Of a stretch of DNA of 64,000 nucleotides, positions 8,009 through 8,470 are shown one piece after another (the stretch's first letter is position 1; every line of letters starts with the position of its first letter). Position numbers and translations under genes: made by a program. The notes beneath the pieces were generated by a model. The model saw only the letters and a list, made by a program, of their open reading frames with translations, was not told the DNA's origin and made no database searches. Where the stretch lies: the NCBI GenBank assembly GCA_965116885.1, contig OZ220741.1, forward strand, positions 1,824,001 to 1,888,000. The letters are read 5' to 3'. This DNA is from Candidatus Latescibacterota bacterium. GTDB taxonomy: Bacteria; Latescibacterota; UBA2968.

Positions 8009-8470
8009 ATGCAAAAACTGGTCAAAAAAACGCTGCATTACGAGACCATTATGCCCGTTGAGGCTTATCATCCTGAAGATGATACCTGGGAGGATGAAAT
8101 TAACCTTGCTCTTACTATCGGAAGTTGCGTCTGGGCGATTGCCTCACCTGATCCTTTTGGAGAGGTTGCTTGCGCTGGATTCGTCCTGAATACCCTCGCA
8201 CATGATGAACCTACTGTCGAATTTGTGACAGATGTAATGGAGGCCAATATCGAGGCTGATAGGCAAAGGATGGAACAGCAGGCGGATATGGCTGAAGCAG
8301 TCATAGATACTGCCCGAACTATTGTTATTTTAAAACTCTGGCCTGTATTAAACAATCCGCCTGCTGGTTCATCTCTCTCTGCTCGTGTTGAATCAGGTAA
8401 GGATGTTGTGTCAGCAGACAAGGATACTACAAACAGGCTTGCTCAACAGACGAGTCAGGACTGCGATTAA
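8009..8470 (+). CDS. hypothetical protein, candidate second precursor/toxin
   Basis: GGAGG RBS before ATG 8009; MQKLVKK...AYHPEDDTWE followed by a hydrophobic Cys-bracketed segment CVWAIASPDPFGEVAC. Confidence 0.6.
   Translation: MQKLVKKTLHYETIMPVEAYHPEDDTWEDEINLALTIGSCVWAIASPDPFGEVACAGFVLNTLAHDEPTVEFVTDVMEANIEADRQRMEQQADMAEAVIDTARTIVILKLWPVLNNPPAGSSLSARVESGKDVVSADKDTTNRLAQQTSQDCD

Follow-up and report, generated by a model that had tools for sequence, protein, structure and literature searches.

An open reading frame of a Candidatus Latescibacterota genome as the probable leftover precursor gene of a decayed peptide-maturation cluster

The DNA considered here, referred to as the window, is a 64,000-nucleotide stretch of a Candidatus Latescibacterota genome (assembly GCA_965116885.1, contig OZ220741.1, positions 1,824,001 to 1,888,000 of the forward strand), and positions within it are numbered from its first letter. 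It holds an intact gene cluster, termed type A, that encodes a small precursor of 84 amino acids together with a fusion of an S8 protease domain and a TIGR04066/DUF1611-like domain, an acyl carrier protein (ACP) and an exporter, and, upstream of this cluster, an open reading frame (ORF) of 153 residues that lies among fragments of a paralogous cluster, termed type B. The 153-residue ORF is probably the leftover precursor gene of this second, decayed type B peptide-maturation cluster, with a leader homologous to that of the 84-residue precursor, and it resembles the latter because both carry homologous N-terminal leaders. The features of the ORF and of the sequence immediately 5' of it are as follows.

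7956 to 7978, + strand, hairpin followed by a T-run, conserved, within the conserved intergenic region 5' of the ORF
7999 to 8003, + strand, ribosome-binding site GGAGG, 5 nucleotides before the ATG, invariant across 10 aligned genomes
8009 to 8470, + strand, 153-residue ORF, a type B precursor-family gene, 3'-truncated and fused in frame with the tail of a CPBP gene
8009 to 8077, + strand, leader-coding part, residues 1-23 (MQKLVKK...VEAYHPE), including the A-Y-H-x-E box
8322 to 8470, + strand, last ~49 codons of the ORF, derived from a CPBP (Rce1-like) membrane protease gene, of which they are the 3' end, and the mark of a deletion chimera

The ORF starts with the ATG at 8009 and ends with a TAA at 8468-8470; its residues 20-28 are YHPEDDTWE, it has cysteines at positions 40 and 55, and it has no match to any Pfam or NCBIfam domain. 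The segment 8322-8470 is 92% identical in nucleotide sequence to L020 2032-1490, in one of the related loci described below, and the tail that it encodes is 89% identical in amino acids to the end of a 326-residue ORF, which itself matches PF02517 with 67.2 bits. In the full-length CPBP neighbor in L020 the PF02517 match extends over residues 154-237, and the window keeps only the counterpart of the last ~47 residues, so the Rce1-like catalytic core is not found in the CPBP-derived tail. These 47-49 residues replace the ~25 terminal residues found in the nearest members of the family (P0042, P0039 and P0055), and a complete core combined with a native C-terminal module is not found in the ORF.

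Whole-genome searches detect relatives of the 153-residue ORF in eight other genomes of the same genus (E ≤ 6e-6), and a profile search of 5.8 billion proteins returns a family of 71 members, in which the ORF is P0036. All 71 start with 20 almost invariant residues, MQKLVKRKMHYETIMPVEAY, the invariant leader columns being M1, Q2, K3, L4, K6, Y11, P16, E18, A19, Y20 and E23; of the 70 readable members, 29 have H and 35 have E directly after these 20 residues. After the leader come an acidic stretch, then a Gly/Ala-rich hydrophobic segment that is hypervariable, a helical region of acidic character and, at the C terminus, a tail of one of several alternative kinds. The proteins are 121-158 residues long; their middle is hydrophobic and hairpin-like, and their C-terminal domain is acidic and conserved and ends in motifs such as DIDYDDPxVQxYGE. 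Twelve of the 64 full-length members, the 153-residue ORF among them, have a pair of cysteines 15 residues apart, and 36 of the 64 have none in the core. A look-up of a full-length type B protein in the Atlas gave only scores of 0.77-0.82, to unrelated families, and no lead.

The positions of these genes in the relatives indicate the type of cluster to which the ORF belonged. In all nine related loci the homologue is the one leader-bearing ORF of the locus, with an ABC exporter before it and zinc-ribbon genes on both sides; eight of the loci have, within ~4 kb downstream of it and on its strand, a gene for an S8-TIGR04066 fusion that is 54-55% identical to the one in the window. Genes for an ACP (64-71% identity) and for a 344-residue protein (36-79%) come next after the fusion gene where the retrieved stretch extends that far. 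In the window itself, only a 65-bp 5' remnant of the cognate fusion gene is kept, and the intact type A fusion gene lies 9.8 kb downstream of the ORF. One relative, L022, is syntenic with the flanks of the window (MlaD 97%, an FG-GAP protein 94%, and two regulators 92 and 94%); as it shares these flanks and holds a type B cluster, the window once had such a cluster at this spot. The 153-residue ORF is therefore not an extra substrate gene of the intact cluster, a possibility raised in the initial annotation, and instead occupies the precursor position in a paralogous cluster of its own, now decayed in the window. The zinc-ribbon genes are present in one to three copies on each side of the small ORF in all of the related type B loci. 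In L021 (5762-14340), two consecutive sets of genes for the S8 fusion, ACP and BtrH_N-like protein flank a single small ORF with its zinc-ribbon genes, with an ABC-exporter fragment between them; these doubled sets and the fragment indicate that such loci duplicate and decay often.

The remains of the type B cluster in the window, other than the ORF, are listed here.

7026 to 7200, + strand, ABC exporter remnant in two short pieces, of which 7062-7196 is 91% identical in nucleotides to 15222-15356
7229 to 7567, + strand, zinc-ribbon protein with two transmembrane segments, paralogue 1, intact
7593 to 7925, + strand, zinc-ribbon protein with two transmembrane segments, paralogue 2, intact (TIGR04104 25.1 bits, cut-off 45)
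8527 to 8835, + strand, zinc-ribbon protein with two transmembrane segments, paralogue 3, intact
8807 to 9175, + strand, zinc-ribbon protein with two transmembrane segments, paralogue 4, intact
9217 to 9281, + strand, 5' remnant, ~65 bases, of the lost type B S8-fusion gene, 94% identical to L020 850-786
9280 to 9414, + strand, 3' remnant, ~135 bases, of the lost type B gene for the BtrH_N-like 344-residue protein, 95% identical to L022 13947-14081

Nucleotide alignment with the relatives places the junctions of two deletions. The first, from ~8259 to 8322, corresponds to ~1.08 kb in a relative and took the last ~25 codons of the ORF and most of the CPBP gene, fusing the two frames; the second, of ~2.8 kb at 9280/9281, took the protease fusion, the ACP and most of the gene for the 344-residue protein. 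The 153-residue ORF is thus a chimeric relic in which the leader and hydrophobic core are intact. The four zinc-ribbon (CxxC...CxxC) paralogues are intact while every enzyme gene of their cluster is deleted, and their matches to TIGR04104 are weak (25-27 bits, cut-off 45); these proteins may be orphan immunity genes kept under selection. The type B exporters of the relatives have only ~32% protein identity to the type A exporter, as against the 91% DNA identity of the exporter remnant, and this disparity suggests a mosaic exporter, or recombination between type A and type B clusters, preceding the decay. A tRNA-Pro(GGG) gene is located at 6345-6421, and its 3' part is repeated at 9415-9493 and 27267-27340 with 83-94% identity. 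Between successive copies lie the decayed type B remnant and, farther on, the entire type A cluster, and each repeat is followed by one of two paralogous response-regulator/AraC genes (9958-10659 and 27441-28142). With these repeats around both clusters, the arrangement has the look of a tandem integration of two islands at a single tRNA attachment site; no integrase gene was seen around them. A 62-residue ORF adjoining the tRNA gene (6778-6966) is without a Pfam family and occupies the same place in L022 (81% identity). A DNA contig from another sample seems to skip 7232-8538, with a side of only 31 letters, which is too weak to interpret.

The type A cluster spans ~9958 to 27154. Its genes encode, in order, a response-regulator/AraC protein, a TPR protein, the 84-residue precursor, two membrane ORFs, an ABC ATPase, the ABC exporter, a thioredoxin-fold protein, a Yip1/YknW protein, the 650-residue S8-TIGR04066/DUF1611-like fusion, the ACP, a glycosyltransferase, the 344-residue protein, a MauE/DoxX protein, a second Yip1 protein, and HlyD and MacB-type transporter proteins. 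The principal features, with the score of the precursor on the leader hidden Markov model (HMM) that is described below, are these.

12271 to 12525, + strand, type A precursor of 84 residues, with leader, Cys31, Gly-rich hydrophobic core and C-terminal Cys84 (leader HMM 35.2 bits)
14881 to 16605, + strand, ABC exporter of the intact cluster, 574 residues, with only ABC_membrane and ABC_tran and no peptidase domain
18306 to 20258, + strand, intact type A fusion of an S8 protease domain (QhpE-like) and a TIGR04066/DUF1611-like domain
20286 to 20561, + strand, acyl carrier protein
21720 to 22754, + strand, BtrH_N-like protein of 344 residues

The S8 motifs D-S-G, H-G-T and G-x-S-x-A-A-P are invariant in eight homologues of the fusion protein. 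For the 344-residue protein, six of eight homologues match BtrH_N (PF14399) at E ≤ 10 (best 3.1e-6), the copy in the window giving no hits; look-alike clusters in the Atlas score 0.97-0.98, a profile of the protein gave nothing below E 0.4 against PDB sequences, and an AlphaFold model from an eight-row alignment (mean per-residue confidence, pLDDT, of 51) is too poor to use. Twelve close relatives of the 84-residue precursor share the leader MDLKKVAIIKPARGNYDAGT.Y.YHSE..[EQ]C, and two distant ones have ...YAYLPEWLQC and ...SAYSWEEW....C; as a lone query against the genome and 60 relatives, the precursor finds only two real relatives. A Cys directly after the leader and a Cys as the last residue are present in 13 of 14 aligned type A precursors, the fourteenth sequence being incomplete at the retrieved coordinates. 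The cluster also encodes a thioredoxin-fold (ResA/TlpA-like) protein (17031-17585) and the MauE/DoxX protein (22738-23175), and the two retained cysteines together with these genes suggest an end-to-end disulfide or a similar link in the ~54-residue Gly-rich type A peptide.

The initial annotation had connected the two ORFs through a YHxE-(x0-2)-TWE motif, and this is indeed common to both, residues 24-30 of the 84-residue precursor being YHSETWE, followed by Cys31. In a six-frame translation of the 5,557,749-bp genome (11,115,494 residues), both YH.E.{0,2}TWE and the looser YH.{1,6}TWE have exactly two matches, namely the two ORFs, 4.3 kb apart; TWE and YH.E occur 236 and 269 times, respectively, and the expectation for the combined pattern is ~0.02. 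It should be noted that the pattern was picked after being seen, so that independent tests weigh more than its rarity in the genome. The motif does not hold as a conserved unit: the real unit is L-x-K...[V/I]-x-A-Y-x-x-E, in which H is common at the position after Tyr, and TWE is incidental. Among the 71 homologues of the 153-residue ORF, the strict motif is present in 8, YH.E in 29 and TWE in 9, as against 70 with AY..E, and the 12 close relatives of the 84-residue precursor all have YHSE, with TWE in 3. Similarly, the N-terminal Lys-Lys pairs remarked on in both ORFs are present but are not at homologous positions, since profile alignments pair K6 of LVK in the 153-residue ORF with K10 of IIK in the 84-residue ORF rather than with its K4-K5.

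The homology of the two leaders is best judged from comparisons of profiles. An hhalign alignment of type A (14 sequences) with type B (45 sequences) has a score of 25.5 (E 5e-4, probability 32%) over 21 gapless columns, with the Lys and AYHxE positions in register; none of 200 column shuffles in either of two sets reaches this score (mean ~10, maximum 19.9), and reversed profiles give 10.8 and 12.3. A profile of leaders from other families, 24 in number, aligns with type A at a score of 35.1 (probability 94%, E 1.4e-7), with reversed or shuffled profiles far below, and with type B at 31.9 (probability 88.5%, E 2.7e-6); 0 of ~97 effective shuffles (100 run) reach either score, the maxima being 16.2 and 15.8, and the reversed profiles give 9.2 and 11.8. 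A bridging precursor in locus L032 starts with MQKLVKP, continues with ...VIAYHDED..., has the type A layout of a Cys after the leader and a C-terminal Cys, and lies beside a type A enzyme that is 91% identical to that in the window. In ten genomes, the leader codons of type B differ synonymously at K3, L4, V5, P16, V17, A19 and H21 with the residues kept, which supports selection acting on the leader peptide. The intergenic region 7880-8008 is also conserved at the nucleotide level over its entire length in the ten genomes and has a perfect 8-bp hairpin, with a T-run, shortly ahead of the ribosome-binding site; it could act as terminator for the gene before it, as an attenuator, or as an anchor for recombination that swaps cores.

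The leaders also extend beyond the two focal families. A 32-state leader HMM was built from 40 leaders, with both focal families among the seeds, and a threshold of 10 bits was used for hits in 77 loci around relatives of the S8 fusion, nearly all from Candidatus Latescibacterota with a few from Gemmatimonadota, KSB1 and Bacteroidetes. It finds 46 ORFs in 40 of these loci, 18 of them non-seeds; every one of the 46 shares the strand of the S8-fusion gene, with 36 located upstream of that gene, and the best reversed decoys have 8.4 and 9.1 bits. In the related genomes the fusion gene is usually succeeded by genes for an ACP and a BtrH_N-like protein, and an ABC exporter is close by. The sequences carried by the 46 leaders form 22 clusters that BLAST does not connect at E ≤ 1e-3, ranging from Cys-rich tails of 15 residues to β-rich or Gly-rich segments of 100 residues. 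Among 75,717 ORFs of the genome, the four best matches are all <6 kb upstream of an S8-fusion gene or remnant: the 153-residue ORF (40.1 bits), the 84-residue ORF (35.2 bits), an ORF at 1,763,062 (34.2 bits), 2.8 kb upstream of a 60%-identical fusion paralogue, and an ORF at 5,484,949 on the − strand (12.4 bits), 4.7 kb upstream of a 40%-identical paralogue; the fifth, with 10.6 bits, is without such a neighbor. Outside the window, the genome has three further S8-TIGR04066 paralogues (in 1,762,954-1,769,078, 5,478,373-5,484,949 and 1,925,274-1,941,538), and upstream of two of these lies a leader-bearing ORF of their own, the cargo being different in each. The HMM detects no leader at the paralogue at 1,939,649, and ~13 kb upstream of this leaderless paralogue there is a SPASM-type radical SAM match (TIGR04068 162.8 bits, cut-off 500). 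In a search of 1.84 billion representative proteins, the leader profile finds 38 at E ≤ 0.001, a number limited by the shortness of the profile, and all of these except four repetitive proteins match at or near their own N terminus and are 45-193 residues long. Models built from type A or type B leaders alone were rejected, as they found only their own kin in the 77 loci, and so was a hand-written regular expression, which missed both focal families and gave 16 mostly spurious genome matches. The proposal of a multi-precursor system in which variable cargo follows a conserved leader is therefore supported, through profile comparisons that link both leaders with each other and with a wider set beside S8-TIGR04066 genes. 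The accompanying comparison with polymorphic toxins fits only loosely: the large N-terminal trafficking region, C-terminal toxin domain and adjacent immunity gene of such toxins are not found in an ORF of 153 residues from a family of 121-158, and the architecture is that of a bacteriocin or RiPP-like (RiPP, a peptide made by the ribosome and modified after translation) precursor family.

A metatranscriptome library has four contigs on 7200-13200, of which only two are error-free, and these cover 8044-8256 and 12262-12445, that is, both precursor genes, a hint that both are transcribed; the contig-free parts of this 6-kb stretch say nothing about silence. A prediction of the complex that residues 1-60 of the ORF would form with the S8-fusion protein of the window, of the kind suggested in the initial annotation, gave no answer (score 0.01, mark 0.32) and is counted neither way.

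Several observations weigh against reading the 153-residue ORF as a leftover type B precursor gene with a leader homologous to that of type A. The probability of the direct A-to-B alignment is by itself only 32%. The scan of the genome with the 32-state HMM, which has both focal families among its seeds, does return the two ORFs as its top two hits, but an HMM of the 24 leaders that are neither type A nor type B retrieves neither of them among the 75,717 ORFs, giving the 153-residue ORF 5.4 bits (E 62) and the 84-residue ORF 2.8 bits, as against 13.7 bits for the best decoy; the link between A and B therefore rests on the profile-profile comparisons and bridging sequences and not on single-sequence significance. 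Of the 46 leader matches, 28 are seeds of the model, and 37 of the 77 S8-fusion loci have no leader match of at least 10 bits. The 130 nucleotides 5' of the ORF are as conserved in ten genomes as the leader codons, so a regulatory element or an anchor for recombination, as opposed to peptide function, could account for some of this conservation. Type B proteins, at ~125-140 residues, are long for RiPP precursors and have an unusual conserved acidic C-terminal domain, and the 153-residue ORF is without its native C terminus and its cognate enzymes. The RNA contigs have depths of only 2.4 and 3.2, come from a library that may contain DNA, and do not reach across the deletion junction.

Some of these features would be explained if the type B family were not a substrate but another component of the locus, such as a membrane-anchored immunity protein, chaperone or regulator, that shares the N terminus of true precursors through recombination or as a decoy for the leader-binding site. 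The size of the proteins, their hydrophobic hairpin-like middle and conserved acidic C-terminal domain, the conservation of the upstream non-coding 130 nucleotides, and the several alternative C-terminal modules, which suggest cassette exchange, are consistent with such a role. It is nevertheless distinctly unlikely, because the type B protein is the only leader-bearing ORF in each of the nine type B loci and has the same position as leader ORFs in sister loci whose cargo is peptide-like, Cys-rich or Gly-rich; an invariant leader with a hypervariable core is the pattern of a precursor, and other candidates for immunity, the zinc-ribbon transmembrane proteins and CPBP, are already present in the loci. 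Coincidence between two unrelated small ORFs is highly improbable. It draws on the post hoc definition of the motif, the conservation of TWE in neither family, and the failure of the leave-family-out HMM, but the motif is found only twice in 11.1 million six-frame residues, at a distance of no more than 4.3 kb, the profile-profile scores are far above those of shuffled and reversed controls, and there are bridging sequences and homologous enzyme triads beside both families.

A different question is whether the ORF, although a relic, is still a working substrate that is handled in trans by the type A (or type C) S8-fusion machinery and exporter, as the initial annotation had envisaged for the intact cluster. 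Its leader, ribosome-binding site and hydrophobic core are intact, an error-free contig from the RNA library covers 8044-8256, of the resident paralogues, the type A enzyme is the one most similar to the lost enzyme (55% identity, compared with 50, 36 and 39% for the others), and the frame is open across the deletion. However, an open frame after a deletion is expected by chance in one case of three and the native C-terminal module is gone. In addition, identity among the cognate type B enzymes is 90-93%, whereas it is only 55% between these and the resident type A enzyme, and the A and B leaders share only the Lys and AYHxE positions, which suggests separate specificities. Present processing in trans thus appears unlikely, and the ORF is best regarded as the remnant of a type B precursor gene.

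The leader is a segment of ~20-27 residues composed of Met, a hydrophobic residue and Lys (often K-P-x-R), a short spacer, [V/I]-x-A-Y-x-x-E and an acidic stretch. It would be the common handle by which the S8-fusion maturation machinery and the exporter recognize substrates, and the S8 domain would remove it. Subtilisins prefer a hydrophobic P4, a small P2 and an aromatic P1 residue, a preference that [V/I]-x-A-Y matches, and a guess is that cleavage occurs after the Tyr; after such a cut the acidic stretch would stay with the product or be exposed to a further round of trimming. The ACP and the DUF1611-like and BtrH_N-like parts may add an ACP-borne group. In the window, two deletions struck the type B cluster, removing the enzymes and joining the 3' end of the ORF to the CPBP tail.

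Among described systems, the CLI_3235 class is the closest; it is defined in NCBIfam by a precursor (TIGR04065), a radical SAM protein (TIGR04068), the TIGR04066 protein and an ACP-related protein (TIGR04069), plus a subtilase. Like that class, the present loci have a TIGR04066-like domain, an ACP-type protein and a subtilisin-like protease beside a small precursor and an ABC transporter; unlike it, they have the protease and the TIGR04066-like domain in one polypeptide and an additional BtrH_N-like protein. The TIGR04066 matches, at 136.4 and 138.1 bits, are below the cut-off of 200, although the domain is clearly related, since none of 14 control genomes gave any match. No TIGR04068-like radical SAM protein is present in the window, all matches in the genome being outside it and below the cut-off, the nearest, at 1,925,274, far below; the ACP of the window matches generic ACP models, TIGR04069 not being among its NCBIfam matches; and TIGR04065 is not matched by either ORF in NCBIfam, as the precursor types are all without a match to any Pfam or NCBIfam model. 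In the literature, the class was found only as an annotation, an example being the Paenibacillus SacP23 cluster, labeled a "peptide maturation system" (PMC10731318).

The organization also has parallels in systems that differ in their components. In the Nif11/NHLP and double-glycine leader families, one conserved leader precedes many unrelated cores, with several precursors or clusters per genome and an ABC exporter nearby. All of these properties (a shared leader, diverse cores, several clusters per genome and a nearby ABC exporter) recur here, but the leader has another sequence, and the role of leader peptidase would fall to an S8 domain that is fused to a DUF1611-like domain; unlike in double-glycine bacteriocins, the alignments have no Gly-Gly at the end of the leader and the exporter has no C39 peptidase domain. 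QhpE and QhpC, and MauD and MauE, function in the maturation of quinoprotein amine dehydrogenases, QhpE being a leader protease. The best NCBIfam match of the S8 domain is QhpE, with 158 bits, just under the cut-off of 165, and the type A cluster encodes the MauE/DoxX protein (91 bits) and a thioredoxin-fold protein with a weak match to MauD. By analogy, this likeness would fit a small Cys-containing peptide that is matured outside the cytoplasm; in contrast with the quinoprotein systems, there are no dehydrogenase subunits, and the type B family is mostly without Cys (36 of 64 with none in the core). In butirosin biosynthesis, BtrI is an ACP and BtrH is an ACP-dependent acyltransferase. Here too an ACP adjoins a BtrH_N-like protein, by Pfam matches in homologues and not in the copy in the window, but the acceptor would be a ribosomal peptide and not an aminoglycoside.

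The logic of a shared leader and variable cores is already well known, but this particular leader and enzyme set is in no Pfam or NCBIfam model. Literature searches on DUF1611, TIGR04066, BtrH and RiPPs or gene clusters of Latescibacterota, which did not extend to supplements, where generic "RiPP-like" labels may occur, found nothing on the leader or on the enzyme fusion. The phylum has been noted, in two reports, for its high and uncharacterised biosynthetic potential (PMC9426513, PMC12993501).

The 32-position leader profile offers a handle for genome mining, by which candidate precursors with at least 22 unrelated types of cargo can be found in uncultured, mostly sponge-associated bacteria, and the enzyme triad hints at a peptide modification chemistry. 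The locus also illustrates the turnover of clusters, with tandem islands at tRNA-Pro in which enzymes are deleted while putative immunity genes and a precursor leader survive. As a tentative extension, which is considered somewhat unlikely in its entirety, the leader may be the mark of an undescribed superfamily of ribosomal peptides or small proteins in genomes of the Latescibacterota type, in which the S8-DUF1611 fusion, the ACP and the BtrH-like transferase would carry out an ACP-dependent (amino)acylation coupled to leader removal. Given the shared leader, orphan precursors that arise from the decay of clusters, such as the 153-residue ORF, could then be matured by paralogous clusters, and a genome with four such enzyme sets would gain a combinatorial range of products.

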